Shown here: positions 13,792 through 41,226 of the stretch, piece after piece
How positions within the stretch are numbered: position 1 is the stretch's first letter
How the letters are laid out: every line of letters begins with the position of its first letter
Position numbers and translations under genes: made by a program
Notes under the pieces: generated by a model
The model's database searches: none
What the model saw: only the letters and a program-made list of their open reading frames with translations
What the model was told of the DNA's origin: nothing
Source: Patescibacteria group bacterium
Lineage (GTDB): Bacteria; Patescibacteriota; Minisyncoccia; Phycocordibacterales; JAKFXT01
Direction: 5' to 3'
Assembly: GCA_038063555.1 (NCBI GenBank)
Contig: JBBTUX010000010.1
Coordinates: 22,936 to 86,935, forward strand
DNA: 64,000 nt

Positions 13792-13796
13792 GCATT

Positions 13797-13828: not shown

Positions 13829-13829
13829 T

Positions 13830-24310: not shown

Positions 24311-24856
24311 ATGACTACAAAAAAAGAATTGTTCACTAAAATAATTTTGACAACTTTGATAGCCGGGACAGTAATAGCGAGTGTGGCTATCGCTCCAGGA
24401 CTTGGTCCCGTTCTTCGTTTATTTGACAATAAAAATAATAAGAGAAGGTTGGGTTTTTCGCGTGCCATTAAAAATTTGGAGGAAAAAAGAATGGTAAAAA
24501 TTTTTAATAAAGACGGAAATTTAATTATTAAAATAACAGATAAAGGAAAGGGGAGGGTTCTAAAATATAAATTTGATGAAATGAAAATTTATAACCCCAA
24601 AAAATGGGATGGGCTATGGAGAATTGTCATGTTTGATATTCCAACAAAAGACAACAAAAAACGAGATATTCTCCGTTTAAAATTAAAAGAAATGGGCTTT
24701 GAAATGACTCAAAGATCTGTTTTCGTTTATCCTTACCCAGCAAAAAACGAGATTGACTTTCTGGGAGAGTATTTGGGAATTAGAAAACATATTACCTGTA
24801 TTCTTGCAAAAGAAATGGAGGGGAGTAGGAATTATAAAAAACTTTTTAAACTTTAG
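24311..24856 (+). CDS. PaaX-like regulator / Cas2-fold domain protein with N-terminal TM segment
   Basis: C-terminal WDGLWRIVMFDIPTKDNKKRDILRLKLKEMGFEMTQRSVFVYP matches the PaaX_C / Cas2-like pattern (W.G.W..V.FdiP...R..LR..L...GF...Q.SVF). Gene flanked by an 11-bp inverted repeat GCATATACTCC (24280-24290) / GGAGTATATGC (24918-24928). Confidence 0.45.
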   Translation: MTTKKELFTKIILTTLIAGTVIASVAIAPGLGPVLRLFDNKNNKRRLGFSRAIKNLEEKRMVKIFNKDGNLIIKITDKGKGRVLKYKFDEMKIYNPKKWDGLWRIVMFDIPTKDNKKRDILRLKLKEMGFEMTQRSVFVYPYPAKNEIDFLGEYLGIRKHITCILAKEMEGSRNYKKLFKL

Positions 24857-24982: not shown

Positions 24983-25798
24983 ATGCCAAAGATAAAAAAC
25001 AATATAAGAATCAAGAAGTGGCCCAAGAAACAATTTGGGCAAAACTTTCTGACCAACAAAACAATCGTTAATAGAATGGTGAAAACTGCTCTAATAAAAG
25101 AAGCTGACATTGTTCTTGAAATAGGAGCGGGCAAGGGAGTTTTGACAGAAGAATTACTCAAAAGTGGAGCAAGAGTTTTGGCTGTTGAGAAAGATCGCGA
25201 CTTGATACCAGAATTGAAAGAAAGGTTTTCTGAAAAAATAAAAAATGAAAAATTAATTTTGATTGAAAAAGATATTCGCGACATTAATTTAAAAAATTAC
25301 AAATTTAAAAATGGTAAGTGGAAGTTGGTTGCCAACATTCCTTATTACATCACTGGAGAAATTCTAAGAAGATTTTTGGAAAATAAAATACAGCCATCTC
25401 TAATGGTCCTAATGGTGCAAAAAGAAGTCGGGCAAAGAATTGTGGCGCGAGATGGCAAAGAAAGCATTCTTTCAATTTCTGTAAAAGTATACGGCAAAGC
25501 AACTCTTGTTTCCTATGTTTCCCGTGGCAATTTTACCCCGTCGCCAAACGTTGATTCGGCTATTATAAGCATCTCAAATATCAACAAGAATTTTTTTAAA
25601 GGTTTCAGTGAGAAAAAATTCTTTGAAATACTGAGAACAGGCTTTGCTCATAAGAGAAAATTCCTTTTTTCTAATTTATCTATTCTTTTTTCTGTAGATA
25701 AACTGAGAAAATCTTTCAAAAAGGCAAATATACCCCTAAATATAAGGGGGGAAGACCTTTCTTTATCACAATGGGGTGAATTATCTCTGCTACTTTAG
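24983..25798 (+). CDS. rsmA: 16S rRNA (adenine1518/1519-N6)-dimethyltransferase
   Basis: ...KKQFGQNFL...VLEIGAGKGVLTEEL...NIPYYIT... are KsgA motifs. Confidence 0.85.
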   Translation: MPKIKNNIRIKKWPKKQFGQNFLTNKTIVNRMVKTALIKEADIVLEIGAGKGVLTEELLKSGARVLAVEKDRDLIPELKERFSEKIKNEKLILIEKDIRDINLKNYKFKNGKWKLVANIPYYITGEILRRFLENKIQPSLMVLMVQKEVGQRIVARDGKESILSISVKVYGKATLVSYVSRGNFTPSPNVDSAIISISNINKNFFKGFSEKKFFEILRTGFAHKRKFLFSNLSILFSVDKLRKSFKKANIPLNIRGEDLSLSQWGELSLLL

Positions 25799-25887: not shown

Positions 25888-26952
25888 TTGGTGGAGGCAA
25901 AGATGGAAAACTTTGCAAAAATACTGCCTAGCAGACGCTTTTCGGCCGTGTTGGGGTCGTTGGTATTTGTTATTGTCTTAGTTTGGGGAGCCAAAGCCCT
26001 TTCTATGTCAAAAAATTCTTCTGTTTCCATTGCCGATAGCCCCTCTCTCATTACAAGCAGTGAAATAGAACGTCTCTCTTTTGAAAAAGTAAATTTGATT
26101 GATAGCGATGAAGATGATCTGAAAGATTGGGAGGAAATTCTCTGGCAAACCGACCCTAAAAACCCCGACACTGATAGCGACGGAACAAACGATGGGGAAG
26201 AAATAAAGAAAAATAGAGACCCTAAAGTTAAGGGTCCTAGCGACACTTTGCATTTACCAGTTGGCACCGACCAAAGCACAGTAAATAAAGTTGAGGAAAA
26301 ATTAACAACCACAGATTTGGTGGCGCGAGATTTTTTCAGTAAATACCTCGCCGCAAAACAAAGTGGGCAACCTATAGACAGTAATATATCTGGCCAAATA
26401 GCTTCCTCTGTTTTAACGCAAACAAAAACTATAGGAATAGTCAGACTTTATAGCCAAGGCGATTTAATAATTGATAAAAACGACAACACCGAAAATTTAA
26501 AAAGTTATGGTGAAAAAATGGGAAGCATTATAAAAAATACACCTCCTTGGAAAGAAAGTGAGTTAGAAATTATTAAGCAAGCGCTTGAAAGAGAGGACGA
26601 GAGCATTTTGAAACGACTTGACCCTATTATAAATGGCTACACTTCAATGCGCGAACAAATGTTAAAAATTACTGTGCCAGAAAAAGCGATTCCTACTCAT
26701 TTGGATTTATTGAATGCTATGGAGAAAATAATTTCTTCACTAAAATCCGCTCAAAATGTTTTCAAAGACCCGGTAACAGCATTGACGATTTTTGGAAAAT
26801 ATTCAGAAACAATTACAGGGCTTCATAGAGTTTTTATTGATATACGAGGACTTTTCCAAAGAAATAACATTACCTATGACAGCTTAAAAAACGATGGATA
26901 TTACTATGCCAATTTTGCAGATTTAATTGAATTGAGCGCAAAAAAACAATGA
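25888..26952 (+). CDS. Hypothetical signal-anchored/secreted protein with acidic DTDSDGTNDGEE Ca-binding-like repeat
   Basis: 354 aa. N-terminal hydrophobic segment, DxDxDG motif. Confidence 0.45.
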   Translation: MVEAKMENFAKILPSRRFSAVLGSLVFVIVLVWGAKALSMSKNSSVSIADSPSLITSSEIERLSFEKVNLIDSDEDDLKDWEEILWQTDPKNPDTDSDGTNDGEEIKKNRDPKVKGPSDTLHLPVGTDQSTVNKVEEKLTTTDLVARDFFSKYLAAKQSGQPIDSNISGQIASSVLTQTKTIGIVRLYSQGDLIIDKNDNTENLKSYGEKMGSIIKNTPPWKESELEIIKQALEREDESILKRLDPIINGYTSMREQMLKITVPEKAIPTHLDLLNAMEKIISSLKSAQNVFKDPVTALTIFGKYSETITGLHRVFIDIRGLFQRNNITYDSLKNDGYYYANFADLIELSAKKQ

Positions 26953-28598
26953 TTATTTCTTCTTTGCAAAAGCAAAATAGGTTGATATTTAAGGCCGTTT
27001 CTGTGTTTGTAGTATTAGCGTTTTTATTTTCACCTATTCTACCTGCCAAAAAAGTCGAGGCGCTAGTTGTGAGTTGTCCAGTTTGTGAGGCCATACTTAC
27101 CACCATAAGCACTGTGTCGACCTACATAATTGGCGGTGGCATAGCGTTTTTGGTTACTAAAGAAAAAGTCCTAGACCCGATTTTCAAAATGATTGCGCGC
27201 ATGATTTTACGGGGCATAACACAAAGCATTATCCAATGGGCAGCTGGTGGCTTCCAAGGCAATCCATCTTTTATACAAAACCCCACACAATTTTTTGCCA
27301 ATGTGGCTGACCAGGCCATAGGACAAATAATTTATAACAACGCCGGCCTACAATGGATGTGTAGTCCATTCCGGCTTCAATTGAAACGCGCTCTTATTTA
27401 CAATCGCTCTTTTACCCAAAGGTCACAGTGTACCTTGACCGGCATAGTCGGAAACTATGAAGGATTCATAAGTGGAGTTAATAATGAACTTGGAACTTTG
27501 GGTGGTTGGAATGCCTGGAACGTAATGGCAACGCAACCAGAAAATAATCCCTATGGAGCATACGCACTTTTTAATCTTCAGGTTGAAGCCGCTATTACAA
27601 CTGACAAAACGCGCGAGCTCAATCTTCTAAATTGGGGTAAGGGATTTTTCTCTTGGAAAGAGCCTGGATGTGTTCAAAGGGCAATGGCAAATAAGCAAAT
27701 ACAAGATACAAGAGATGTTTACGAAGGTGAGGGAGGCGGAGCTCCACTTCCTCAAGTAGTAAGTGAGGACGCTGCGGGTAATGTGAATCTTTACGATCGA
27801 GTGCCAGAGAATACCAACCCAAACAAATGCGACACAATCACTCCCGGAAGCGTCATCGCTGACTCCGTCAACAAAGCTCTTGGTGCGGGGCAAGACGAAC
27901 TTATTGCGGCGGATGAAATCGGTGAGGTTTTGGGAGCCGTGCTTTATGGACTGGTTACCAATGTTTTGGGGGATGCTGGTTTGTTTGGCGCCGGCGGAGG
28001 GGGTGGCGTATATTCAAATGATTACGAGGCACAAGTAGAGCAAGAGGATAGAGAGGTTTTTCAAACAACTAAAAACGACACTGTTTCTCAAATAGTTTCT
28101 AGTGCAAACGATGAAAATAGTTATATTGCAACTAAAAATCAATCTATTGCTCGTATAGAAATTTCAGCCCAAAAAGTGCGTGACATTATAGGGTGCTATC
28201 AACAAAGAATTGCTCTTGCCGCAAGTAGCACAGAGCCGGTTAATATAGCTCTGTTCCAAAATGAAATTGCTAGCGCCTCAACCACGCTTGCTCAAGTTCT
28301 CTTAAGAAAAGCACCTCTTCAGAGGGACATATCAATAGGGGAAAACAACTTAAACAATTTAAATTCATTGGGCGACCGAATGAGTGCTTTGCCGTATGAA
28401 AGAAGAGATTCTTTCCGCTCCCTTGCAAATGAATTTGCAAACTTGCTTTCTCAAATACATTACCAAGGAGATGTGATACAGGCAGAATATGAACGCGATT
28501 TCACCATTCCTGAAAGTTTGAAAACAATAGATACTCAGAGTGATCAGAAGTTCCAACAATGTCAAAATCCGCCTGAAACAAACAATCAAGCAGTATGA
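26949..28598 (+). CDS. Hypothetical membrane-anchored large extracytoplasmic protein (first gene of T4SS-like cluster)
   Basis: 549 aa. N-terminal TM, Gly-rich GAGGGGGV segment. Overlapping start/stop with neighbours (operon). Confidence 0.45.
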   Translation: MIISSLQKQNRLIFKAVSVFVVLAFLFSPILPAKKVEALVVSCPVCEAILTTISTVSTYIIGGGIAFLVTKEKVLDPIFKMIARMILRGITQSIIQWAAGGFQGNPSFIQNPTQFFANVADQAIGQIIYNNAGLQWMCSPFRLQLKRALIYNRSFTQRSQCTLTGIVGNYEGFISGVNNELGTLGGWNAWNVMATQPENNPYGAYALFNLQVEAAITTDKTRELNLLNWGKGFFSWKEPGCVQRAMANKQIQDTRDVYEGEGGGAPLPQVVSEDAAGNVNLYDRVPENTNPNKCDTITPGSVIADSVNKALGAGQDELIAADEIGEVLGAVLYGLVTNVLGDAGLFGAGGGGGVYSNDYEAQVEQEDREVFQTTKNDTVSQIVSSANDENSYIATKNQSIARIEISAQKVRDIIGCYQQRIALAASSTEPVNIALFQNEIASASTTLAQVLLRKAPLQRDISIGENNLNNLNSLGDRMSALPYERRDSFRSLANEFANLLSQIHYQGDVIQAEYERDFTIPESLKTIDTQSDQKFQQCQNPPETNNQAV

Positions 28599-31021
28599 GA
28601 AAGAAATTTGAATACATAATAGTAATTTCAATAATTCTTCAAAGTATTTTTGGATTTGTTTTGCCGGCGCAGGCGCAAGAAAATGACAATGTAAGTGCCA
28701 CATTTAATGCCGAAAATGCCACACAAATAAATAATGCCAACACCACCATTCCCTCAGGAGGATTGGAAAACCCTGCAAACAATCCAAGCAATCCAAATGC
28801 TTACAGTCCTCAAGCCGCCGCACAAGAAGCGCAACAAAAACAAGAAGCCGCTAAAAATGCGAAAAAAACTGAAATTCCAGAATTATGCACTTGGAAAGAG
28901 AAAGTTACGTTAAACATATCGGAATGCGTGGGAAACCTTCTTTTAGTCATAGGAGGCGCTTTTGTGGGAATAACAGGAACATTTTTAAACTTCTCAATCG
29001 AGATTACAGTTTTACAAATGTCAAAATTTGTTAATGACGTTGGAGTTATTACCGCGGGATGGAAAACTTTCCGCGACCTTGCCAATATGTTTTTCATCTT
29101 TATATTAATTTATATTGCCATTGCCACAATTATAGGTGCTGCCAGTATGAATACCCGCAAATCGCTGGTAATGGTAATAATTGTAGCCCTTCTTATTAAC
29201 TTCAGTATGTTTTTCACTAAGGTAGTAATTGACGCATCAAATATTCTGGCCATTCAATTTTATAATTCTATAAGCAAAGGGCCTAGTTCTTCAAATAATG
29301 GTTTCTCTTGGGTTTTTATGAACGCTTCGCGTCTTACCACCCTTTACCCGACCGACAGTTCTGCGACTGATAGTGCTAAAGCTAAGGGGTATAAAGGATC
29401 AAATATTCTTCTAATTGGTTTCTTCGGGCTTATATTTGGGATTATTTTATCTTTTTGTTTTCTTGCTATAGGAATTTTATTTGTTATAAGATTTGTAGTT
29501 TTACTTTTCTTAATGATGCTTTCGCCAATTGCCCTTTTGGGTCTTGTTGTAAACAGAATGGGAGAAGTTTGGACTAAGTGGCTTAACACATTATTTAGAG
29601 AAGCCATTTTTGCTCCGACTATTATGGCCATGCTTTGGATTATTGCTTCAATAGTGAACAATACGGCCTTCATAAATGCAATAAACCGAAATGGTCAAAC
29701 AGATGGAGGATTTTATAATATCATTGGGGAAACAATCAAAGATTCCATGGCTGTGGCAGTTAATTTTGGAATTTTGATAGCAATGCTCATAGGAGCTCTC
29801 ATTATTTCAAAAAACTTCAGTGGTTCAGCCGGCGGCGCCGTCTTGGGCGCCGCCGAAAAGTGGTCCAGAAAAGCAGCTGGTGGCATGACTTTCGGCGCCG
29901 CCGGCTTTGCTGGAAGAAAAAGCTTTGGCTGGGCAGGAAACAAATTGGCTGAAAATAAGGGGCTTGAACGCTTTGCGGCTAGAAATCCTTTTGTTGGTGG
30001 AAATATTTTGAGAGCGGCAAAGGGAGTTGCGAGTTCTAGTTTTGACGCTCGTGGCGCAGGAATCAGTGCCTTGGGAGATGCCGGAGGGAAGGGTGGTTAC
30101 AGAGGCATACTTGAGGCGCAAGTTAAAGAACGCCAACGCAGAGCGACAGAACTTAAAGATGTAAAAATCTATTCTGATGAAAAAACTGAAACCGAAGCCA
30201 CAGGCAGAGAAGAAGCTATAAAAGGATATGACACTCGCATTGCTGAATTAAATAAAAAAGCCGCTGAATTGAGAATGGTAACACCGAAAGACGTGGCTGA
30301 TGGAGAGAGATTGGCGGCAGAAAGAGAAAATATTGAAAAACAAAGAGTGGGAACTATAAATCTAAGAAACGAAGCCCAAGCCAAACTAAAAGAAATTCAT
30401 ACAGATCAAGGCAGAACAAAAACAGGTGAGCAGGTTTATGGTGAGCAACTAATGCAAGGACCAATTGCTGCTGTCATGAAGAGGCTTTCAGCAGAACGTG
30501 AAAAGTCTTCCAAAAAGATAGACGAGCCATACGCCAAAGATCGATATAAACAAGAAACCAAATATGCCGATGATATTACTCTTAATAGACTCGATGCTCA
30601 AATAGAAGAGCTTAGGGCACAGCTAGAAAGGGGAGCGAAAGCGGGGGTCAATGCTTCAGAAGCTATCGCGCGACACACCGAAGAACTTTCTAAGGTTGCT
30701 GAGAAAATGTCTAAAGTGGATTCAGAGGTCAAGTGGGGTCGCGCTAGTAACGAAGAAAGAGAGGTCTTAAAAACTGAGAGTGAAAATCTTAAAAAGAAAA
30801 TCGATGAGATTCAAAAAAACTCAAGTCGAGCGGCTAATTTACAAAAAGAACTTTTAGAAAAACAAATAAGCGACCTTAAAAATCAAAAAAGTAAAATCAA
30901 AGGTAAAAGAGCAACAGAAAAATTCCGCGAAGTGGTAAAAGAGTTTGGGTATGATGAAGAAAAAAAACAAGAAAAACCAACACCTGAAGTAAAAAACGAT
31001 GGTGGGGAAGCGAAAACATAA
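28595..31021 (+). CDS. Polytopic membrane protein, TrbL/VirB6-like, with long Lys/Glu-rich coiled-coil C-terminal extension
   Basis: Signal peptide, then ≥6 TM helices, then a ~350-aa charged tail. Architecture and context (next to PrgI-like and VirB4-like genes) suggest VirB6/TrbL. Confidence 0.4.
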   Translation: MRKKFEYIIVISIILQSIFGFVLPAQAQENDNVSATFNAENATQINNANTTIPSGGLENPANNPSNPNAYSPQAAAQEAQQKQEAAKNAKKTEIPELCTWKEKVTLNISECVGNLLLVIGGAFVGITGTFLNFSIEITVLQMSKFVNDVGVITAGWKTFRDLANMFFIFILIYIAIATIIGAASMNTRKSLVMVIIVALLINFSMFFTKVVIDASNILAIQFYNSISKGPSSSNNGFSWVFMNASRLTTLYPTDSSATDSAKAKGYKGSNILLIGFFGLIFGIILSFCFLAIGILFVIRFVVLLFLMMLSPIALLGLVVNRMGEVWTKWLNTLFREAIFAPTIMAMLWIIASIVNNTAFINAINRNGQTDGGFYNIIGETIKDSMAVAVNFGILIAMLIGALIISKNFSGSAGGAVLGAAEKWSRKAAGGMTFGAAGFAGRKSFGWAGNKLAENKGLERFAARNPFVGGNILRAAKGVASSSFDARGAGISALGDAGGKGGYRGILEAQVKERQRRATELKDVKIYSDEKTETEATGREEAIKGYDTRIAELNKKAAELRMVTPKDVADGERLAAERENIEKQRVGTINLRNEAQAKLKEIHTDQGRTKTGEQVYGEQLMQGPIAAVMKRLSAEREKSSKKIDEPYAKDRYKQETKYADDITLNRLDAQIEELRAQLERGAKAGVNASEAIARHTEELSKVAEKMSKVDSEVKWGRASNEEREVLKTESENLKKKIDEIQKNSSRAANLQKELLEKQISDLKNQKSKIKGKRATEKFREVVKEFGYDEEKKQEKPTPEVKNDGGEAKT

Positions 31022-31042
31022 GATAGAATGTAAAATATAAAC

Positions 31043-31906
31043 ATGCACTATTCACCTGATGAGTTACAAAGAAAATTTGATTCTCTGCCTGAAGAACTAA
31101 GGGAAGCGATTACTTCTGTTGACTTTGCCAAGTCCCTGCAAGAAATTGGCAAAACGAGTGGCTTGCACTTAGACCAATTAGATCAACTTTTTGAAGAAGT
31201 CGGTTTTGTTTTACTTGGAATGACACACCCAAGCGAGTTTGGCAGAAAAATTGGTGTTTTATTTAATCTTCCAGAAGTTGCTAGAAACAGTTTGGTAAAA
31301 GAAGTTGATGAAAAAATATTTAAACCAATTAGAACGTCTTTAATGTCTCTTCACAGTAAAACACCAAAAACGACCAACGACTTACGACCAACGACTTACG
31401 ACAGACAAACAAATGAGGTCAAACCCCGAGAACAAGCAATTCCTCATGAAACTGACTATAGTATGTCGAGAGCTGATATATTGTCTGCAATTGAGAACCC
31501 TGTGACCAAAAAAGTTAACATCGATAACACTCCAAAAAGGAATGTAGAAACTAGTGACCCTCATCTATATTTGTCGGAGCATAATGAAATGATTCAAAAA
31601 ATGAAAATTGCTCCTTTAGCAGGAAACATAATTACTCCTAAAAAATCCTTGGCAGAAGAAGCTGTTTTGGTAGCCCAGAAAAAAGTGGAGGGTGACAAAA
31701 GGACTCCCTCTCCCGACAAATCGCAAAATCCCTCTCCAATAATAATTCAGAAAACGCCCCCCGCTCCACAAAATATTCAACCTTTAACAATAGCCACTTC
31801 TCCTTTGGAAAAATTGAGCAGTGTTGTCCGTATTCCCAGACAGTCTGTCAACATTACGACACCGCCTACAACAAAAGGTGTCGATCCTTATAGAGAGGTT
31901 GTTTAA
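31043..31906 (+). CDS. Hypothetical protein with in-frame tandem CGACCAACGACTTACGA repeats (PTTND/PTTYD) and Pro/Thr-rich C-terminus
   Basis: 287 aa. Repeats at 31371-31406. Confidence 0.45.
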   Translation: MHYSPDELQRKFDSLPEELREAITSVDFAKSLQEIGKTSGLHLDQLDQLFEEVGFVLLGMTHPSEFGRKIGVLFNLPEVARNSLVKEVDEKIFKPIRTSLMSLHSKTPKTTNDLRPTTYDRQTNEVKPREQAIPHETDYSMSRADILSAIENPVTKKVNIDNTPKRNVETSDPHLYLSEHNEMIQKMKIAPLAGNIITPKKSLAEEAVLVAQKKVEGDKRTPSPDKSQNPSPIIIQKTPPAPQNIQPLTIATSPLEKLSSVVRIPRQSVNITTPPTTKGVDPYREVV

Positions 31907-32340
31907 GAACCAACAACTGACGACTTACAACTAACAATGAGAAAATTCAAATTTCTTGACTGGCAGGTCTATAAAGACTCTCGGGACTTGTTTTCTGAAA
32001 TATTAAAAATTGTAAAAAAATTACCAAAAGAATATAGATTTGAATTGGGGAGTCAGGTTATTCGCTCGTCTCTTTCTATAACCCTGAACATAGCGGAAGG
32101 TAGCGGAAAAGAATCTGACAAAGAGCTTGTTCGTTTTATTGAGATAAGCCTGGGTTCTGCGTATGAAACATTGGCCTGTTTAGACTCAATGAGAAATAGC
32201 GAGTTGATAACCTTGGTAGAGTTTAACAATTTGCAAGAAAAAATTTCCTCTGTTTGTAATCAACTCGGCGGACTAAAGAAAAAAGTTGTCTTAACAGAGA
32301 AGTTGTAAGTTGTTGGTTGTTGGTTGTAAGTTATAATTAG
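31907..32340 (+). mobile_element. IVS-like inverted-repeat element carrying four-helix-bundle gene #1
   Basis: Left flank gaaccaacaactgacgacttacaactaaca. Right flank gttgtaagttgttggttgttggttgtaagtt (reverse-complement relationship). Located between two operon genes. Confidence 0.5.
31937..32308 (+). CDS. Four-helix-bundle protein (23S rRNA intervening-sequence protein family, TIGR02436/PF05635-like; Avd-like fold)
   Basis: 123 aa. ...SQVIRSSLSITLNIAEGSGKES...GSAYETLACLD is the family pattern (NIAEG..R/K). Confidence 0.7.
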   Translation: MRKFKFLDWQVYKDSRDLFSEILKIVKKLPKEYRFELGSQVIRSSLSITLNIAEGSGKESDKELVRFIEISLGSAYETLACLDSMRNSELITLVEFNNLQEKISSVCNQLGGLKKKVVLTEKL

Positions 32341-32343
32341 CTC

Positions 32344-32868
32344 ATGCAATATCAAGTTCCACAATTTATAGAGGTTGAGGACAAACTTTTCGGTCCACTC
32401 ACTTTAAAACAGTTTATTTACCTTGCTGGGGGGGTTGGCATCGCGGTTGTTCTCTATATTTTCATTCCCATTAAATTTATAGCCATAATTATAGCTGTTC
32501 CTTTTGTCGCTTTTGCTATAGCCCTTTCTTTTTATAAGATAAACAGCAAGCCGTTTATTTTCACACTGGAGGCAGCTGTTGGTTATTGGCTGAAAAACAA
32601 ACTATACATTTGGAAAAAAACAACAAAGAAGATTGAAGCCAAAAAAGAAATGGTTGATGAAGGTCCTTCCATAGAAACTCTTTTAGCCCCCCGTCTTTCT
32701 GACAGTCGTCTTAAAGATTTGGCCTGGAGTTTAGATGTTAAGGAGCGCCTTGATTCAAGCCCCTTGGCAAAATACAAAGAGAAAAAACTTTCATTTGAAG
32801 AAGAGGAGAAGGAGAGGGTCGAGTTCACTAAGAACTATGACCTGGGTGCAAAAGGTCATAGTTCTTAG
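32344..32868 (+). CDS. PrgI-family-like small membrane protein (VirB3 analogue of Gram-positive-type T4SS)
   Basis: MQYQVPQFIEVEDKLFGPLTLKQFIYLAGGVGIAVVLYIF..., then a second TM and a charged tail. Context upstream of VirB4. Confidence 0.4.
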   Translation: MQYQVPQFIEVEDKLFGPLTLKQFIYLAGGVGIAVVLYIFIPIKFIAIIIAVPFVAFAIALSFYKINSKPFIFTLEAAVGYWLKNKLYIWKKTTKKIEAKKEMVDEGPSIETLLAPRLSDSRLKDLAWSLDVKERLDSSPLAKYKEKKLSFEEEEKERVEFTKNYDLGAKGHSS

Positions 32869-33300
32869 AGTTAAGAGTTACGAGATATGAGTTATGAAAA
32901 AATTAAAGATTTTACCGACCTTAGAGTATGGCAAGAGAGTCACAAATTGGTTCTTTTGACATACTTATTAACTAAAAAGTTTCCTGCTGAAGAAAAATTC
33001 TCACTTACTAGCCAACTTCGTAGGGCAGTTGTATCTATAACTTCAAATGTTGCCGAGGGTTTCGGAAGACAAAGCTATAAAGAAAGGATACAATTTTATT
33101 ATATGGCTCAAGGTTCATTAATTGAAGTAAAAAATCAACTTTTAGTGGCAAGAGATATTGGATATCTTGACAAGATAAATTTTGAAAAAGTTATGGAACA
33201 ATCAAATGTCGCTCATCAATTATTGCAAGGATTAATTAGAAGTTCTAAAGAATATCTTACTCGTAACTCGTAACTCTTATCTCATAACTCATTTTATGGC
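32851..33300 (+). mobile_element. IVS-like inverted-repeat element (GAGTTAYGA units) carrying four-helix-bundle gene #2
   Basis: Left arm agagttaagagttacgagatatgagttatga overlaps the start codon. Right arm tcgtaactcgtaactcttatctcataactc overlaps the stop. Arms are reverse complements of each other. Confidence 0.55.
32887..33273 (+). CDS. Four-helix-bundle protein (23S rRNA IVS protein family) #2
   Basis: 128 aa. ...LRVWQESHKLVLLTYLLTKKFPAEEKFSLTSQLRRAVVSITSNVAEGFGRQSYKERIQFYYMAQGSLIEV is the canonical family sequence. Confidence 0.75.
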   Translation: MSYEKIKDFTDLRVWQESHKLVLLTYLLTKKFPAEEKFSLTSQLRRAVVSITSNVAEGFGRQSYKERIQFYYMAQGSLIEVKNQLLVARDIGYLDKINFEKVMEQSNVAHQLLQGLIRSSKEYLTRNS

Positions 33301-33928
33301 ACAACAACAAACAGGTTCTACGCAAGATTTTGTGCCTATAAAGGAGGTGCGTGATGGAGTTGTAATACTTAAAGATGGCGGTCTAAGAGCCATACTTTTG
33401 ACATCTTCCGTTAACTTCGCTCTAAAATCGCAAGACGAGCAGGGATCAATAATTTTTCAATTTCAAAACTTTTTAAACTCGCTTGAATTTCCTATTGAAA
33501 TATTTCTTCAGTCAAGAAAATTGGACATAAGACCATATCTTTCGCTTTTAGAAAATCGCTATCGCGAACAAGTGGTTGATTTGCTGAAAATACAAACTCG
33601 CGAATATATTGAATTCATAAAAAGTTTCACTGAAAGCGCCAACATTATGACTAAAAGTTTTTTTATAGTAATTCCTTACACTCCTCCAATTTTAACTTCT
33701 TCCTCGGTGGGAAACTTTTTCGGTGGCAATAAAAAACCTACCCCGCAAGATTTATCTAATCAATTTGAAGAACATCGAACTCAATTGGAGCAAAGAATCT
33801 CCGTTGTAGAACAGGGAATGGTGCGTACCGGAGTAAGGGTTGTGCAACTTGGCACAGAAGAAATAATCGAGCTTTACTATAAAATATTCAATCCGGGAGA
33901 GCAGGACAAACCAATGAAATTGTCGTAG
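33296..33928 (+). CDS. virB4: VirB4/TrbE-family N-terminal domain (gene split from the ATPase part)
   Basis: DFVPIKEVRDGVVILKDGGLRAILLTSSVNFALKS resembles N-termini of Gram-positive VirB4 proteins (PrgJ/TcpF type). 210 aa; 210 + 604 gives a typical VirB4 length. Ends in a perfect 18-bp hairpin. Confidence 0.5.
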   Translation: MAQQQTGSTQDFVPIKEVRDGVVILKDGGLRAILLTSSVNFALKSQDEQGSIIFQFQNFLNSLEFPIEIFLQSRKLDIRPYLSLLENRYREQVVDLLKIQTREYIEFIKSFTESANIMTKSFFIVIPYTPPILTSSSVGNFFGGNKKPTPQDLSNQFEEHRTQLEQRISVVEQGMVRTGVRVVQLGTEEIIELYYKIFNPGEQDKPMKLS

Positions 33929-33944
33929 ACAATTTCATTGGTTT
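33901..33944. repeat. Perfect 18-bp inverted repeat overlapping the stop codon of the VirB4 N-terminal ORF
   Basis: CAAACCAATGAAATTGTC-gta-GACAATTTCATTGGTTTG. Confidence 0.7.
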
Positions 33945-34095
33945 GGAGTTACGAGTTAAGAGACGCGAGTTACGAACAAGAAAGTCCCAAAAAATACTGA
34001 ATTTGGAGTATAATTTCAGTGTATGACAACAAATAACTTGTTGGGGTCTTTTGTTAATATCATTCTCATAACTCTTATCTCATAACTCTTCCCTT
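33945..34095. repeat. 'Empty' GAGTTAYGA hairpin element between the two virB4 ORFs
   Basis: Left arm ggagttacgagttaagagacgcgagttacga, ~95-bp core containing aatttcagtgtatg, right arm tcataactcttatctcataactc. No four-helix-bundle gene inside. Confidence 0.55.
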
Positions 34096-35910
34096 ATGGC
34101 TTTACTTGATTTTTTTAAATCCAAACCTAAAAACGAGCCGGGGTTAACGGCTATACTCCCTCAAGAGATTTATGAGTCCGGAGTGTTGGAGCTAAAGGAC
34201 GTTATAGCGCCTTCTGCTTTGAAGATTTCCCCGAAAGAAATAAATTTGGGAGAAAAAATCGTCAGAACTTTTTTTGTTATTTCTTACCCACGCTATTTGA
34301 CTGAAAGTTGGTTTGCTCCAATTATTAATCTTGATAAGGTTTTTGACGCATCTATTTTTATACACCCCATTGAAACTGCCAAAATTTTGCGACAATTCCA
34401 AAAAAAAGTGGCGGAGGTGCAGAGTCAAATACATGAGCGCGAAGAGAAGGGATTGGTTCGAGACCCCGTTCTTGATACGGCTTATCAAGACCTTGAGCAC
34501 TTGAGGGATTCTTTGCAACAAGCCCAGGAAAAAATTTTTGATGTTGGTCTTTATATTTCAATTTATGGCGATTCAAACCAAGAGTTGGACAAAGTGGAGT
34601 CCGAAGTTAAATCAATTCTTGAGTCAAAACTTGTTTATATGAAACCGGCTCTTTTTCAACAAGAGCAGGGTTTCCGAAGCGTTCTCCCCATTGGAACGGA
34701 TGAGCTTGGCGTTCATTCTAAATTAAATTCTTCTCCTCTTTCTAGCGTTTTTCCTTTTATTTCTTTTGACTTAACGTCGGACAAAGGGATTCTTTACGGT
34801 ATCAATCGCCACAACGCATCGTTAGTTCTTTTTGATAGATTTTCTCTTGAAAATTATAATTCCGTCACTTTTGCTAAATCTGGTTCGGGAAAATCTTATG
34901 CTACCAAGTTAGAGATTCTGCGAACGCTTATGTTTGACTCGGAAGTTATTGTGCTTGATCCAGAGAGAGAGTATGAGTATTTAGCCGAAGCTACAGGGGG
35001 ACGTTATTTTAATGTGTCATTAACGTCTGAACACCACATAAACCCATTTGATTTACCAATTCCAAGAGAAGATGAGTCAACGGCCGATGTTTTGCGCTCA
35101 AATATTGTTAATTTAGTTGGGCTGTTCCGTGTAATGATGGGAGGATTAAGTGCTGAAGAAGACGCTATTATTGACAGGGCAATTAGTGAAACTTATGCTC
35201 TCAAAGATATTACGCCGGATTCTGATTTTTCAAACATAGAGCCGCCTTTAATGTCCGACTTTGAATTAGTGCTGACAGGAATGGAGGGTGGTGAGAGTTT
35301 GGCGCAACGGCTTACCAAATACACCAAGGGAACTTGGGCCGGGTTTATAAATAGGCCGACAAATGTTGATATAAATAAAAAATTCGTGGTTTTTTCTGTG
35401 CGCGACATGGAAGATGAGTTGAAGCCCGTTGCCATGTATATTGTAATGCATTTTATTTGGAATGCTATAAGACGAGAACTCAAAAAACGTCTTTTGATAG
35501 TGGATGAGGCCTGGTGGATGATGAAATCCGAAGATACCGCTTCCTTTCTATACAGCTTGGTTAAAAGGGGGCGAAAATATTTCCTAGGAGTTGCCACAAT
35601 TACCCAAGACGTGGGAGATTTCTTAAAATCACCATACGGCATGCCCATTATTACCAACTCTTCACTTCAACTTCTTTTAAAACAATCACCATCCTCAATT
35701 GATGATGTGCAAAAAACATTTAACTTAACCGAGGAAGAAAAATATTTGTTGTTAGAAAGCGATGTGGGAGAGGGAATCTTCTTTGCCGGATTAAAACACG
35801 TGGCTATAAAAATAATCGCTTCTTATACTGAAGATCAAATTATAACGTCCGACCCTTCACAGATACTTTCTATTAGAAAAGCAAAAACCGAGCTTAGTTT
35901 GGCAAATTAA
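34096..35910 (+). CDS. virB4: VirB4/TrbE-family conjugal-transfer/T4SS ATPase, ATPase portion
   Basis: Walker A FAKSGSGKSYATK, ...VIVLDPEREY..., Walker B LLIVDEAWWM, and a C-terminal domain. Own ATG, in a different frame from the upstream ORF. Confidence 0.75.
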   Translation: MALLDFFKSKPKNEPGLTAILPQEIYESGVLELKDVIAPSALKISPKEINLGEKIVRTFFVISYPRYLTESWFAPIINLDKVFDASIFIHPIETAKILRQFQKKVAEVQSQIHEREEKGLVRDPVLDTAYQDLEHLRDSLQQAQEKIFDVGLYISIYGDSNQELDKVESEVKSILESKLVYMKPALFQQEQGFRSVLPIGTDELGVHSKLNSSPLSSVFPFISFDLTSDKGILYGINRHNASLVLFDRFSLENYNSVTFAKSGSGKSYATKLEILRTLMFDSEVIVLDPEREYEYLAEATGGRYFNVSLTSEHHINPFDLPIPREDESTADVLRSNIVNLVGLFRVMMGGLSAEEDAIIDRAISETYALKDITPDSDFSNIEPPLMSDFELVLTGMEGGESLAQRLTKYTKGTWAGFINRPTNVDINKKFVVFSVRDMEDELKPVAMYIVMHFIWNAIRRELKKRLLIVDEAWWMMKSEDTASFLYSLVKRGRKYFLGVATITQDVGDFLKSPYGMPIITNSSLQLLLKQSPSSIDDVQKTFNLTEEEKYLLLESDVGEGIFFAGLKHVAIKIIASYTEDQIITSDPSQILSIRKAKTELSLAN

Positions 35911-35911
35911 T

Positions 35912-36454
35912 ATGGAGCAAACTCAAAAAATAGATAGAATTCCAAACGTATGGGCTTTTTTTATGGTTTCTGTTGCTATTATATTTGACCTTTTAGGTTT
36001 TGGCCTTGCTTTTATTCCAGTTGCTGGCTGGCTTATGGCTTCTGCTGTTGGCGTTGTTGCTTTTTTAACTTTCTTTCTATGGTTTACCTTTCGTGGTGCT
36101 GGATATAACAGCACAAGAAAAGTTGCTATTTCAGGCGGCGGATTTCTTGTGGAATTCATACCTCTTTTAAACGCTCTGCCAGCTTGGACTCTTTCCACCT
36201 CACTAATGATTATGGTTGTGAAAGGAGAGGATTTATTTGAAAATCAAAAAAATAAATTAAAGTTGAAACCAAAATATTATGGTCAAAAACTGACAGTGAA
36301 GCCCGCCGCAAATGATAGAAATTATAAAAGTAATTACACTTCTCCCTCAACACCTTCTCCTGTAAATGCTAGACAAAACCCACCCCTAACAAATCGTGGT
36401 TTCAAAGGCATTGCCTCGTCAGATGACACCTCTCGTTTTATTAAAGCTGCATAA
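35912..36454 (+). CDS. Hypothetical membrane protein (T4SS-like cluster)
   Basis: 180 aa, 3-4 TM helices, Pro/Ser-rich tail. Confidence 0.4.
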   Translation: MEQTQKIDRIPNVWAFFMVSVAIIFDLLGFGLAFIPVAGWLMASAVGVVAFLTFFLWFTFRGAGYNSTRKVAISGGGFLVEFIPLLNALPAWTLSTSLMIMVVKGEDLFENQKNKLKLKPKYYGQKLTVKPAANDRNYKSNYTSPSTPSPVNARQNPPLTNRGFKGIASSDDTSRFIKAA

Positions 36455-36455
36455 A

Positions 36456-37463
36456 ATGACTATTTTTACCAAAAAAATTTTAGTGATACTTGCCCTAAGC
36501 TTTTTAAGTTTTTTACCAACCATTGCTTTGTCCCAAACAATAGATTCTTATAAAGATTCTTTGCGCACGGTTATCACTCCGCCAAACCCACAAGCCAATC
36601 AAACGATATCAATTCATCTTGAAAGCTCTCTCATTGACCTTTCTCTTTCCACTATAACTTGGAGTGTTGATGGGAAAGTGATACTTAAAGGAAAAGACCG
36701 TAGGGTATTGGAAACAAAACTTAAAGAAATTGGCAAAGAAACAAATATTTTGATTTCTGTTAACAGTCCCCTTTATGGCTCTTTTGACAAAGAAATAACT
36801 ATAAATCCGACCTCAATTAGCTTAATTTATGAAGCCAATACCTATACTCCTCCGTTTTATAAAGGAAAAGCTTTGCCTTCCTCTGAAAGCGTTGTTACGC
36901 TACTTGCTTTGCCACGCTTTATAAAAAACAATGGAACCCCAATTTCTTCTAAAGATTTAATTTTCACTTGGAAAAAAGAGGGTGTGGTGGACGGCGCCAA
37001 TTCTGGTTTGGGCAAAGACACTTATGTTTTTATAACGGGTAGATTACCGGAAGACACACCTTTAATTGAGGTTAGCGCTTTATTCCCCGAAGAAAGTCTG
37101 CGTGGCTACTCTTCAATTTTACTCCCTTCGTTTAACCCAGAAATTATTGTCTATGAAAATAATCCAATCCTTGGCGTTATTTTAAATAAAGCGATGTCTA
37201 ATGACAATCTTTTGTCAGGTAAAGAAATGTCACTTGTCGCTTACCCATATTTCTTTTCCGGAAAAAACAGAGAGTCAATCAATTTTGAATACGCGTGGTA
37301 TATTAACAATGAAAAAGTGGCTGATATTCCCCAAAACCAAAGCGGGCTAACCATAAGAAGCCCCGAGGGCAGCGGAACTTCCGCTTTGAGAGTGTCGCTT
37401 TCCAATATTAGAAAAATTTTCCAGGTCGCTTCAACAAATTTATTGGTAAAATATGGAGAATAA
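36456..37463 (+). CDS. Hypothetical secreted protein (signal peptide)
   Basis: MTIFTKKILVILALSFLSFLPTIALSQ is a signal peptide. Start placed at 36456, immediately after the upstream stop; the longer listed ORF overlaps the previous gene. Confidence 0.45.
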   Translation: MTIFTKKILVILALSFLSFLPTIALSQTIDSYKDSLRTVITPPNPQANQTISIHLESSLIDLSLSTITWSVDGKVILKGKDRRVLETKLKEIGKETNILISVNSPLYGSFDKEITINPTSISLIYEANTYTPPFYKGKALPSSESVVTLLALPRFIKNNGTPISSKDLIFTWKKEGVVDGANSGLGKDTYVFITGRLPEDTPLIEVSALFPEESLRGYSSILLPSFNPEIIVYENNPILGVILNKAMSNDNLLSGKEMSLVAYPYFFSGKNRESINFEYAWYINNEKVADIPQNQSGLTIRSPEGSGTSALRVSLSNIRKIFQVASTNLLVKYGE

Positions 37464-37501
37464 AAACAGCTTTTAGGTTTCAGCTTTCAGCTTCTAGCTT
37501 T

Positions 37502-38164
37502 ATGATAAAAAAATTAAGAAAAATCGTTGGGAAAACTTTTCTAATAGTTGTGGTTTTTTTCGTTATCTCCTCGCCATTAATTGTTTCGGCCGAACCAACG
37601 GCAAAATGCAACCCCGACCAAAAAGACACATATTGTTTGCTGGCGCCCATCCCTTTCTTTGGCGATAGCGGAGACACCTACAAAACCGGCGACATTGGTA
37701 AATATGTAAAAGCTATTATAAATCTTTCTATTGTCATTGCGGCTGTTTTGGCAGTTGTAATGATAACCATAGGCGGTTTTAAATATATGACCAGTGAGTC
37801 TATTGGGCTAAAAGAAGAAGGTAAAAAAAACATAAGAGATGCCTTCTTAGGACTTGTAATTTTGACTTCGTCTTTCTTAATTTTAAAAACCATAAATCCA
37901 GAGCTTCTTAAATTTAATTTAAACATTCAAACAATCGGCGTTCCAGGGAACACGGCTCAACCAAAAAGCACTAGTCCTCCACTAATATATACAGAGGAGC
38001 AAAACAGACAGGGTTTGTATGAAGTAATCCCAGGAGTAGATCTTAAATCGACCCCCAACCTAACACGCGATCAATTCTATACAAACTGTACAGCTAAAGG
38101 AGGGAAGCCTCGTCCAGAAGGACTAGGTCCAGAAAGTCAAGTTTATCGTTGTTACAATAAGTAA
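37502..38164 (+). CDS. Signal-peptide protein with two hydrophobic helices; possible VirB2/TrbC-like pilin
   Basis: Signal peptide, then ...YVKAIINLSIVIAAVLAVVMITIGGFKYM... and ...AFLGLVILTSSFLILKTI... The architecture is pilin-like. Inference only. Confidence 0.3.
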   Translation: MIKKLRKIVGKTFLIVVVFFVISSPLIVSAEPTAKCNPDQKDTYCLLAPIPFFGDSGDTYKTGDIGKYVKAIINLSIVIAAVLAVVMITIGGFKYMTSESIGLKEEGKKNIRDAFLGLVILTSSFLILKTINPELLKFNLNIQTIGVPGNTAQPKSTSPPLIYTEEQNRQGLYEVIPGVDLKSTPNLTRDQFYTNCTAKGGKPRPEGLGPESQVYRCYNK

Positions 38165-38166
38165 TT

Positions 38167-39390
38167 ATGTCTAAATCAACTGCCATCACAATTATTGTCG
38201 TCGTACTCTTGGCCATAAGCGGGGGCCTCGCTTGGTGGTATTTTTCATTGGGACAATCAGGAGTGGGGAACCAAAACAACGACAGTGGTGGAATAAATTT
38301 TTTCCCTTTTGGAAATAACAACGAACCAACGACCAACGACCAACAACTGACAACCGACAAAGAAAATCAAACGGAAAATGCTCCGGAAATTAGAGAGGTT
38401 TCGCGTTTGCCCGTTGCTGGGTTTTTACCACTTGTTGATAATTTAGGATTTCCTTTTGTTCGTTATGTTGACCAGGAAACTGGCAATTTATATGACGCCC
38501 CCCTTGAAATAGTTTCCAAAAAAAGAATAAGCAATACCACCATACCTAAAATCAGAGAAGTTCATTGGCTTTCTGGGGGAAATTCTTTTATTATGCGCTA
38601 CTTGGACGAAAAGGATTCTCTGCAAAGCTTTTATGCCACCCTAAAAGAAAATTCTTCCGCTGAAGGAAGTTTAACGGGACGCTTTCTATTAGAAAATATT
38701 TCTGACTTGAGTTTGTTTAGAACCAACAGTGCTTCAACAAAAATATTTTATTATTTAACAGAAAATTCCGTCGCCACAATGTTTTCCGCCGAAAGCGACG
38801 GTAGCAAGGCCACTCATGTTTACTCCTCCCCAATGAAAGATTGGTTACTTTATGGAATAAATGATTCTTTGGCTTATATTCAAACAAAGTCATCTGGTCT
38901 TGCCCCCTCCTTTGTTTTTTCTCTTAATATTAAAAATGGAACCGCAAACCCAACTCTTTCAAATTTTATTGGCCTTTCTATTCTTCCCAACAAAAAGGGG
39001 GACTTGATTTTATACTCCAGTACTCCTTTTGAATACCCTTTGCTATACATTTATGATGTAAACAAAAAAACTTCAACCCAAACCTCACTTAGAACTTTTG
39101 CTGACAAATGTCGCTGGAGTGAAAGTAATGTAAGTCGCATCATCTGCGCGGTGCCCACAAACATCCCGCGAGGAACTTACCCCGACGACTGGTATAAAGG
39201 CACAATATCTTTTAGTGATAATATTTGGGAAATTGATTCTGTTAGCGGAACGGCAAAGGAGTTGGTAAGTTTGTATAAAAATTCTTTCTTTTTTGACATT
39301 TCTTCTTTTTCTTTAAGCGACAAAGATAAATTTCTTATTTTGCAAGATAAAACAAACAACTCCCTTTGGAGCGTCCGCCTCAAACAATAA
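38167..39390 (+). CDS. Hypothetical membrane-anchored extracytoplasmic protein; contains in-frame CAACCAACGAC repeat
   Basis: 407 aa, N-terminal TM. Repeat at 38321-38358 encodes NEPTTNDQQLTTD. Confidence 0.45.
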   Translation: MSKSTAITIIVVVLLAISGGLAWWYFSLGQSGVGNQNNDSGGINFFPFGNNNEPTTNDQQLTTDKENQTENAPEIREVSRLPVAGFLPLVDNLGFPFVRYVDQETGNLYDAPLEIVSKKRISNTTIPKIREVHWLSGGNSFIMRYLDEKDSLQSFYATLKENSSAEGSLTGRFLLENISDLSLFRTNSASTKIFYYLTENSVATMFSAESDGSKATHVYSSPMKDWLLYGINDSLAYIQTKSSGLAPSFVFSLNIKNGTANPTLSNFIGLSILPNKKGDLILYSSTPFEYPLLYIYDVNKKTSTQTSLRTFADKCRWSESNVSRIICAVPTNIPRGTYPDDWYKGTISFSDNIWEIDSVSGTAKELVSLYKNSFFFDISSFSLSDKDKFLILQDKTNNSLWSVRLKQ

Positions 39391-39965: not shown

Positions 39966-40688
39966 TTATACCGTGCGATGGCGCTTCAACGCAAGCTCTT
40001 GACCTATGGTAAAAATGTTGCTGACTACAAAATAAAGCGCCACCGCCGAAGACAAACTGTGACTAATTATTACAATTAGTATAGGAAAAAAATATTTCAT
40101 TTGAAACTGCATATTTCTAGCAAAGTCATCTTTAAAAGACGTTTTTTCACCGTCTTTTTTCGCTGGTGTGGCAGGAAAAGAAAGAATGGCCTGAATATAT
40201 TGAGTCACCCCAGCCAAAATAGCCAGAATCCAACTTTTTTGAGCCATGTCAAATATAAAAAACTTCATGGAAACAAACTCTGGAGACCCCACAAAAGAAT
40301 AAAGAATCTCTGGTTTTATAGAAGGGAGCCCTCCTTTATAAAAAATCCAATATAGGGCAATAACAACCGGTATTTGAATTACCAAAACAAGAATACTGGC
40401 AAAAGGGTTAACTTTTGCCTCCTTATACAAATCCAGAGTTGCCTTGCCTAGAGCCTGCCGATCGTCTTTAAACTTTTTCCTAATCTCCTCCATTTTTGGT
40501 TCTATACCCCTCATTTTTATTTGAGTCAAAAGAGCTTTTTTAGTCAAAGGAAAAAGAAGTAGTTTGACCAAAACCGTTGTCAAAATTACCGCCAAAGCCA
40601 CATTCCCCAACGGTAAAAGATCAATCAAAAAAACATTTAGATTATAAATGGGCTGATAGAATACAGTGAAAAAAATTCCTTCATTCAT
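39966..40688 (-). CDS. yidC: Membrane protein insertase YidC (short form)
   Basis: ...NVALAVILTTVLVKLLLFPLTKK...QIPVVIALYWIF... are YidC/Oxa1 core helices. Confidence 0.8.
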   Translation of the reverse strand: MNEGIFFTVFYQPIYNLNVFLIDLLPLGNVALAVILTTVLVKLLLFPLTKKALLTQIKMRGIEPKMEEIRKKFKDDRQALGKATLDLYKEAKVNPFASILVLVIQIPVVIALYWIFYKGGLPSIKPEILYSFVGSPEFVSMKFFIFDMAQKSWILAILAGVTQYIQAILSFPATPAKKDGEKTSFKDDFARNMQFQMKYFFPILIVIISHSLSSAVALYFVVSNIFTIGQELALKRHRTV

Positions 40689-40702
40689 TTTGTCATTTTA
40701 AC

Positions 40703-41062: not shown

Positions 41063-41091
41063 TTTTCTTTAATTCCATCCAAGAGACAGAA

Positions 41092-41226
41092 TTAAACGCT
41101 GAGGCGTTTGCGCCTATTTCGACGACGACGAGTGATTGCCTTGCGACCACCTGAAGACCGGCTCCTTGCGAGAAATCCGTGCACCCTTGCTCTCTTTTTC
41201 TTTTTTGGTTGATATGTTTTGGACAT
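41092..41226 (-). CDS. rpmH: 50S ribosomal protein L34
   Basis: My own translation of the reverse complement is MSKTYQPKKKKRARVHGFLARSRSSGGRKAITRRRRNRRKRLSV*. It is below the ORF-track length cutoff, so it is not listed there. Confidence 0.9.
   Translation of the reverse strand: MSKTYQPKKKKRARVHGFLARSRSSGGRKAITRRRRNRRKRLSV

Follow-up and report, generated by a model that had tools for sequence, protein, structure and literature searches.

A type IV secretion operon beside dnaA, very probably a core chromosomal system, and its inverted-repeat cassettes in a Paceibacteria-class Patescibacterium

We analyzed a stretch of 64,000 nucleotides from a Patescibacteria group bacterium (GenBank assembly GCA_038063555.1, contig JBBTUX010000010.1, positions 22,936 to 86,935 of the forward strand), hereafter called the window, which belongs to a 95.9 kb contig from Hainich groundwater. 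At 25888–39390 on the + strand it carries an operon for a type IV secretion system (T4SS). This is very probably a core chromosomal T4SS of a Paceibacteria-class Patescibacterium, derived from monoderm conjugation machinery (mating-pair formation class FATA, MPF-FATA) without the DNA-processing module. Four T4SS components are encoded, namely PrgI/VirB3, a two-gene VirB4 (a TrsD-like N-terminal part and a CD1110-family ATPase), an extended VirB6-like protein and a VirB2-type pilin; the rest of the operon consists of six envelope or function-unassigned proteins. The operon is flanked by uvrD, a PaaX-like gene and ksgA on one side and by jag-yidC-rnpA-dnaA-dnaN on the other, and therefore adjoins the replication-origin genes. 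A first-pass annotation, made from the sequence alone, had proposed a minimal, non-conjugative T4SS of small-genome bacteria. Profile hidden Markov models (HMMs), fold comparison, synteny, the fixed position at the dnaA side and the absence of a relaxase, coupling protein or VirB11 over 84 kb support this proposal, and the locus matches the system described in other Patescibacteria (PMC12102498, PMC10633639).

The cluster had been described as a contiguous run of thirteen genes starting at 26949. Every open reading frame (ORF) listed there is present on the + strand, with tight or overlapping junctions. The gene number and the start are revised, as 12 ORFs of at least 60 amino acids were counted in 26949–39390 and the operon begins one gene earlier, at 25888, with a 354-amino-acid ORF (g354). 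This start is assigned because g354 overlaps the next ORF by 4 nt and because synteny keeps its position. The junctions lie between −4 and +38 nt except for a single spacer of 167 nt (successively −4, −4, +21, +30, +35, +18, +22, +167, +1, +1 or −59, +38, and +2 nt). The GC content of the operon is 0.385, compared to 0.37–0.38 in the flanks. A promoter scan was uninformative, as promoter-like sites were no commoner than in shuffled sequence; terminator-like sites numbered 27 versus 15.6 ± 4.4 in shuffles.

The VirB4 ATPase (34096–35910), comprising the central and C-terminal P-loop part, matches the NCBIfam CD1110 family with an E-value of 8.6e-112 and 374.8 bits (equivalog cutoff 325), and Pfam P-loop_TraG with an E-value of 8e-26. 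Its Walker A (AKSGSGKS, residues 260–267) and Walker B (LLIVDE, residues 466–471) motifs are intact. The N-terminal domain of VirB4 is encoded as a gene of its own, the TrsD-like ORF (33296–33928), which matches NCBIfam TrsD/TraD (E 1.9e-6) and VirB4_plasma (E 3.8e-9) and aligns to positions 2–117 of the CD1110 model. The first-pass annotation had read these two ORFs as VirB4 in two pieces; both have VirB4/TrsD HMM support, and the description is refined here to a conserved TrsD and VirB4 pair. The TrsD-like ORF (209–222 amino acids) is separate from VirB4 in 16 of 16 relatives inspected, mostly within a few nucleotides of it, with short spacers in a few relatives and a four-helix-bundle (4HB) ORF between the two in one (L005). 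Because the ORF is separate in every relative examined, the two-ORF VirB4 is the ancestral arrangement and not damage. Only the 167-nt spacer between TrsD and VirB4 is unusual in this genome, and it is an inserted ORF-less inverted-repeat element.

The PrgI/VirB3-like protein (32344–32868) matches PF12666 (E 7.4e-11, 42.9 bits versus a cutoff of 27) and has two transmembrane (TM) segments, at residues 19–37 and 45–63, in agreement with the two-TM PrgI-like protein anticipated in the first pass; its 77 orthologues have a median identity of 51%. The pilin-like character proposed for the product of 37502–38164, the sole pilin ORF in the window, is borne out by PF18895 (E 3.9e-6, 27.3 bits versus a cutoff of 26.6), which 42 of 43 orthologues match; 5 of the 43 also match TrbC/VirB2 (PF04956). 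This VirB2/TrbC-type protein has two hydrophobic helices as well as a signal peptide, and carries at its C-terminus a variable extension of approximately 90 amino acids that contains Cys. Its orthologues range from approximately 140 to 500 amino acids in length, with variable tails.

PrgI, VirB4 and the pilin thus pass curated Pfam or NCBIfam cutoffs; the polytopic 808-amino-acid protein g808 (28595–31021), which had been called TrbL/VirB6-like with a coiled-coil tail, has no direct match in Pfam or NCBIfam itself. It has a signal peptide, approximately six TM helices and a coiled-coil tail of some 300–350 amino acids, and 14 of 64 homologues match TrbL/VirB6 (PF04610; best E 2.6e-7). An AlphaFold2 model of residues 1–520 reached a pLDDT of 76 (above 90 in the membrane core), and in a Foldseek search against the PDB its six best matches were all R388 TrwI/VirB6 chains (probability 0.82–1.0, E 0.014–0.12, target-normalised TM-score 0.32–0.48). 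The gene lies upstream of PrgI and VirB4, as does the CD1112 VirB6 gene in the Clostridium botulinum plasmid pCDC3875. As its alignment took in the tails, the VirB6-like family yielded nothing but coiled-coil and low-complexity noise (huntingtin and the like) in a PDB profile search. Although each of these lines of evidence is modest, we accept the label of a predicted "extended VirB6" for g808.

To place the locus among its relatives, VirB4 was used to scan one genome per species, which gave more than 570 relatives; 80 loci were kept, all from Patescibacteria and mostly from Paceibacteria-type groups. VirB4 is 78–89% identical across these 80 loci; such conservation indicates that the motor is inherited vertically and is under strong purifying selection. 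In approximately 45 loci that were long enough to judge gene order, each from a different species representative, the order is shared: uvrD-ksgA-g354-g549-g808-g287-PrgI-TrsD-VirB4-(g180)-g355-pilin-g407-yidC-(rnpA)-dnaA. In the window, ksgA lies at 24983–25798 and yidC, rnpA and dnaA lie within 39966–42738, the position reported for Paceibacteria, where virB4 is close to dnaA, dnaN, rnpA, ksgA and rpmH (PMC12102498). Because it holds this fixed place beside dnaA in the approximately 45 Paceibacteria loci, the system is a core chromosomal one and not an integrated element. Median identity to the window proteins is 81% for VirB4, 62% for TrsD, 51% for PrgI, 37% for the pilin and 27–31% for the anchored, secreted and unassigned proteins. 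This gradient fits a conserved cytoplasmic motor combined with fast-evolving exposed parts.

Consistent with the first-pass annotation, the window ORFs of at least 150 amino acids revealed no relaxase, coupling protein (T4CP) or VirB11. The same holds for the 10 kb beyond each window end (84 kb in total), where a relaxase or T4CP would, according to that annotation, have pointed to an ordinary integrated conjugative element. The PilB/GspE ATPase that it placed 12 kb away was recovered at 51439–53106 on the − strand.

The gene content agrees closely with what has been reported for the phylum. A Patescibacteria-specific VirB4 clade is related to MPF-FATA; TrsD is its most abundant associated component, PrgI/VirB3, VirB6 and VirB2-like pilins occur near virB4, and relaxases are almost absent (Quinonero-Coronel et al., 2025; PMC12102498). 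Likewise, the present locus has a separate TrsD-like gene with VirB4, has PrgI/VirB3, VirB6 and a VirB2-like pilin by virB4, lacks a relaxase, lies beside dnaA, rnpA and ksgA as in Paceibacteria, and is of the monoderm type, with no outer-membrane core proteins. In Southlakia epibionticum, transposon sequencing identified the T4SS cluster (SEML1_0006-0019) and pilins as essential for epibiotic growth (Wang et al., 2023; PMC10633639). The Southlakia system has a six-gene pilin array, in contrast to the single pilin gene found here. Two further differences from the Patescibacteria systems are that virB4 is not directly followed by a peptidase or lysozyme gene, and that two PF05635 cassettes and one ORF-less cassette are present, of which a term search of PMC12102498 found no mention.

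Beyond the phylum, the closest counterparts are the MPF-FATA systems of Firmicutes (CD1110/CD1112/CD1115; pCDC3875), with which the locus shares a VirB4 above the CD1110 equivalog cutoff and a collinear order of VirB6, PrgI and VirB4, as was found when the synteny comparison suggested by the first-pass annotation was made. A separate TrsD N-terminal gene also occurs in the pGO1 subclass (TrsD/TrsE; PMC12102498). The best plasmid matches of VirB4 are CD1110-family proteins of Bacillota (Firmicutes) and Actinomycetota, at just 28–35% identity, and the present locus is chromosomal and vertically inherited. Plasmid pCDC3875 carries VirD4, an SLT (soluble lytic transglycosylase) hydrolase, a single-stranded DNA-binding protein, a MOBP relaxase and a fused VirB4, none of which is found here, whereas the MPF-FATA plasmid systems are without a VirB2-like pilin. 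The integrated conjugative element of Mycoplasma (Mbov_0397 VirB4, Mbov_0395) is similar in being a minimal system of wall-less or monoderm cells with a pilin-like gene near virB4. Both VirB4 parts match VirB4_plasma (E 9.9e-80 for the C-terminal part, in addition to the TrsD-like match given above) and the pilin matches the NCBIfam Mbov_0395 pilin-like model (E 4.5e-6), with scores below the curated cutoffs (268 versus 590 bits and 26 versus 40 bits, respectively). The Mycoplasma system differs in belonging to a mobile element with a DDE transposase and a T4CP.

By analogy with R388 and other VirB systems, the cytoplasmic VirB4 motor (TrsD and VirB4, with VirB4 as hexamers) would dock at the membrane through PrgI/VirB3 and the extended VirB6-like channel protein. 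The motor would then spend ATP to pull the single VirB2-type pilin from the membrane, polymerising it into a pilus or tube that crosses the cell wall. The anchored and secreted proteins g354, g549, g355 and g407, which evolve fast, may build the wall-spanning and host-contact parts. The machine as a whole would mediate contact-dependent exchange with the host of the epibiont, by protein delivery or by acquisition of host macromolecules, and not conjugation. Where it concerns the substrate, the formation of a pilus and contact with the host, this model borrows from the biology of VirB systems such as R388 and from publications on other Patescibacteria. Effector delivery and nucleic-acid uptake have both been put forward as possible roles (PMC12857230, a 2025 review; PMC11665869, a 2024 perspective), and a 2026 preprint describes tubular structures where parasite and host meet, which are possibly T4SS pili (10.64898/2026.06.21.733656).

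The locus could also encode a DNA-uptake machine, comparable to the ComB T4SS of Helicobacter pylori or the archaeal Ced system, that imports environmental or host DNA, or another nucleic acid, as a source of nucleotides. As in ComB, a T4SS with a non-conjugative use, relaxase and T4CP are absent. The C-terminal part of VirB4 weakly matches NCBIfam CedB (E 3e-9) and CedD (E 0.009), both far below the cutoffs. Furthermore, Patescibacteria are without nucleotide synthesis, reviews propose the T4SS as a candidate uptake route (PMC11665869), and the 2026 preprint makes the case that host RNA nourishes a cultivated relative, and ties VirB4 to macromolecule transfer. However, transport direction is not readable from sequence, and the resemblance to ComB and Ced is generic P-loop similarity. 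ComB itself is a diderm system of VirB2-4 and VirB6-10, with no specific sequence relationship to the present locus detected. In Southlakia, moreover, ComEC-dependent competence is separable from T4SS essentiality, according to the summary of PMC10633639 given in PMC12857230. We regard a dedicated DNA-uptake machine as unlikely, while noting that this reading overlaps with the model of contact-dependent exchange and does not exclude it.

Several points weigh against our interpretation of the locus as a core, non-conjugative T4SS. A T4CP may be encoded elsewhere in the genome, and many VirD4 homologues lie far from virB4 (PMC12102498). The VirB6 label rests on weak fold scores (TM-score 0.32–0.48, E 0.01–0.1) combined with transitive HMM matches, and the margin of the pilin over its Pfam cutoff is just 0.7 bit. 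The operon yielded no VirB8-like or VirB1-like component, and a search for a VirB8-like protein (NTF2 fold) gave no HMM or PDB-profile match for g354, g355, g407 or g549. Six of the 12 non-cassette operon proteins are without an assigned role.

It is very improbable that the locus is an integrated conjugative element, intact or decayed to a remnant, that lies near dnaA by chance. In favour of this explanation are the collinearity of VirB4, PrgI and VirB6 with Gram-positive conjugative plasmids and a tyrosine recombinase gene at 11721–12644. The recombinase, however, lies 14 kb off among housekeeping genes and looks XerC/D-like, and no element-type boundary was found in the 84 kb. The identical position and order in approximately 45 long loci of different species representatives, the 78–89% identity of VirB4, the missing relaxase and T4CP and a composition equal to that of the flanks have already largely refuted this explanation.

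It is equally improbable that the locus is degenerating into a pseudogenised, non-functional system: VirB4 is encoded in two ORFs 167 nt apart and three foreign elements break up the PrgI-VirB4 core, but the split occurs in every relative with the ORFs abutting, all ORFs are intact with their Walker motifs preserved, the insertions lie exactly between stop and start codons, the C-terminus of TrsD is unchanged compared to relatives, and up to six cassettes are tolerated in the same operon elsewhere (L103).

These foreign elements form the second subject of this report. The two PF05635 genes and the 167-nt spacer are inverted-repeat cassettes in intergenic spacers, and not parts of the T4SS. The first-pass annotation had already recognized two four-helix-bundle cassettes, and their ORFs belong to PF05635 (23S_rRNA_IVP), with E-values of 4e-28 and 2e-36. 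Cassette 1 (31905–32331, +) contains the ORF 31937–32308 inside inverted heptamer-repeat arms (31905–31932 and 32298–32331), which are complementary over 25 nt at 88% and pair in the minimum free energy (MFE) fold (z −3.9). Cassette 2 (32867–33290, +) contains the ORF 32887–33273 inside GAGTTAN/NTAACTC heptamer arms (32867–32892 and 33259–33290) that form period-7 arrays, are likewise 88% complementary over 25 nt, and pair in the MFE fold (z −5.2). The 4HB proteins match bAvd below cutoff, and no reverse transcriptase was seen in the window.

The TrsD-VirB4 spacer holds a miniature cassette without an ORF (33946–34090, +), in which GAGTTA-family arms surround approximately 75 nt. Its direct repeat D1 shares 96% identity with the cassette 2 right arm, I1, I3 and I6 are arm pairs, and the RNA fold has a z-score of −6.75. 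No Rfam family was found for the intergenic elements, only chance hairpin matches. Related loci differ in these insertions. The closest relative (L001, VirB4 89% identical) is without any cassette and has a 5-nt spacer between PrgI and TrsD ("tag aacat ATG") and the junction "taa tt ATG" between TrsD and VirB4, where four other loci (L005, L003, L024, and L034) carry a full 4HB ORF. Further ORF-less GAGTTAN/NTAACTC inverted-repeat elements were observed at 13830–13900, directly after rpsO, and at 54271–54355, directly before polA; members of the GAGTTA arm family are thus dispersed through this genome. Directly upstream of the pilin start codon, five CAGCTTT heptamers form a solo array (37467–37501, +). 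The window contains no complement to this array, which is almost the same as the left arm of the L005 4HB cassette and is possibly a scar left by a lost cassette arm.

Perfect hairpins immediately precede three GAGTTA-type elements: one of 16 bp at 32828–32868, one of 18 bp at 33907–33945 (+), which covers the TrsD stop codon, and a third of 16–18 bp at approximately 13794–13829. In the first two, the left half belongs to the native 3′ coding sequence of the upstream gene, PrgI and TrsD respectively, and the right half looks like an inverted copy of it made at insertion, as the right half of the TrsD hairpin is missing in L001. Perfect hairpins were found ahead of 8% of cassettes, compared to 0.4% of control sites, a 20-fold enrichment.

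In the 80 genome loci and the window together, all 16 of the 4HB ORFs are on the operon strand, and they are confined to four spacers (g549|g808, g287|PrgI, PrgI|TrsD, and TrsD|VirB4). For a metagenome scan we used a 4HB subgroup of five sequences, as the alignment of 16 sequences was too diverse, and obtained 80 loci with 88 scorable cassettes. One of these (L103; contig Ga0265296_1000084, 7893–18419) is a more distant Patescibacteria T4SS operon (VirB4 57% identical) with six 4HB ORFs, including one 76-amino-acid fragment, between almost every T4SS gene pair. The idea that 4HB genes are exclusive to T4SS clusters was rejected, as only approximately 4 of the 80 metagenomic loci lie in such clusters. 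Other cassettes occupy the junctions PilB|PilC, SdhA|SdhB, GrpE|DnaK, methylmalonyl-CoA mutase large|small (B12-binding) subunit and LysS|DnaG (L109, L159, L121, L147, and L115), in each case with both neighbors on the cassette strand. Across the metagenomic set the upstream neighbor is nearly always co-directional and the downstream one usually so, and T4SS operons look like a local hotspot.

A flanking inverted-repeat score of at least 10 was obtained for 65 of the 88 metagenomic cassettes (74%), compared to 3% of control ORFs. The median arm is 26 nt long; the left arm stops approximately 5 nt short of the start codon, and the right arm follows immediately on the stop codon. Cassette flanks show a 7-nt periodicity (lag-7 identity 0.47 versus 0.27 in controls). 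Arm sequences vary between cassettes with their complementarity retained. A test for selection at the RNA level found no excess of G.U over A.C mismatches in the arms (57 versus 55), and a role of the arms as sense RNA alone is therefore not demonstrated.

The nearest known counterpart is the intervening sequence (IVS) of 23S rRNA with S23p/PF05635, as in Leptospira and Coxiella; PF05635 ORFs are also known from rRNA insertions of candidate phyla radiation (CPR) bacteria (PMC11270868). Both have a four-helix-bundle ORF inside inverted repeats able to form a long stem, both are present sporadically among relatives, and both occur in short ORF-less versions. The cassettes described here differ in lying between protein-coding operon genes, and not in rRNA helices, and in having tandem heptamers as arms. 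A limited literature search, which does not amount to proof of novelty, found no description of operon-inserted, heptamer-armed PF05635 cassettes. We tentatively suggest, as a possibility that we hold with considerable doubt, that they form a class of small elements undescribed for operons, consisting of a PF05635 gene or none within inverted tandem-heptamer arrays. Such elements would insert precisely between the stop and start codons of co-directional genes, with a preference for T4SS operons (up to six copies), and may cut or fold the polycistronic transcript as rRNA IVSs do, changing the relative expression of T4SS subunits.

The remaining operon genes, all on the + strand, encode conserved proteins that are mostly membrane-associated or exported. 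The first, g354 (25888–26952, with an alternative ATG start at 25903), has no Pfam match, an N-terminal anchor (TM residues 20–38) and a DxDxDG Ca-binding-like motif, and keeps its position in 45 loci. The following gene, g549 (26949–28598; 53 loci), encodes a membrane-anchored extracellular protein whose N-terminal domain is conserved and contains Cys and whose C-terminal part is helical; it is a candidate surface or adhesion component. Its homologues have variable C-terminal lectin (F5/8 type C) or immunoglobulin (Ig)-like domains, and one matches DUF4141; the AlphaFold2 model of the N-terminal domain was poor (pLDDT 59, pTM 0.33) and a Foldseek search gave no fold match. The soluble protein g287 (31043–31906) lacks TM segments, has a Pro/Thr-rich C-terminus and no family match in Pfam or NCBIfam, and lies between the VirB6-like gene and PrgI in approximately 50 loci at approximately 27% identity.

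Directly 3′ of VirB4 in 39 loci lies g180 (35912–36454), a small polytopic membrane protein with three hydrophobic segments and no family match. The next protein, g355 (36396–37463, with the likely start at the ATG at 36456; 71 orthologues), is secreted or anchored and beta-rich, with a signal or TM segment, and is probably Ig-like: 6 of 45 orthologues match BiPBP_C and 3 of 45 match Ig_3. The last gene, g407 (38167–39390; 58 orthologues), encodes an N-terminally anchored extracellular protein (TM residues 4–22) with probable beta-propeller repeats, suggested by a weak profile match to the TolB propeller (E 0.0028). PDB profile searches of g355, g407, g354 and g549 gave weak hints only, which were an Ig domain, the TolB propeller, a Ca-binding motif and nothing, respectively.

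Four further features of the window were observed outside the operon. Between uvrD and ksgA, the gene at 24311–24856 (+) encodes a PaaX-like protein that has a hydrophobic segment at its N-terminus and a central Cas2-like domain (PF20803, E 5e-20). On the − strand, opposite to the operon and 4 kb upstream of it, an M23 peptidase with LysM repeats is encoded (20972–21862). M23 and LysM domains occur in VirB1-like proteins (PMC12102498), and the peptidase is a possible substitute for the absent VirB1-type wall hydrolase. The polynucleotide phosphorylase (PNPase) gene lies 8 kb upstream of the operon (15332–17518, +), a proximity that may be coincidental; PNPase and VirB4 are tied to RNA-based parasitism in the phylum in the 2026 preprint. 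Upstream of rpsO, the region 13270–13470 is GC-rich by eye, has no long ORF and ends in a T-run; it matched no Rfam family at an E-value of 1 or below and may be a divergent small RNA gene.

The T4SS itself is an already known system, and the cassettes within its operons are what is added here to published accounts. Few machines have been shown to be essential to the epibiotic life of Patescibacteria, and the T4SS is among them, the demonstration coming from Saccharimonadia. The present locus brings no new principle, and serves as a clean 12-gene reference for Paceibacteria with six conserved unassigned partners. The drop in identity from the motor to the surface points to the surface parts as determinants of host specificity. 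If the cassettes are mobile and processed at the RNA level, the phenomenon of rRNA intervening sequences would extend to mRNA operons, and this, if true, would offer a way into the function of PF05635, a very large and uncharacterised family.

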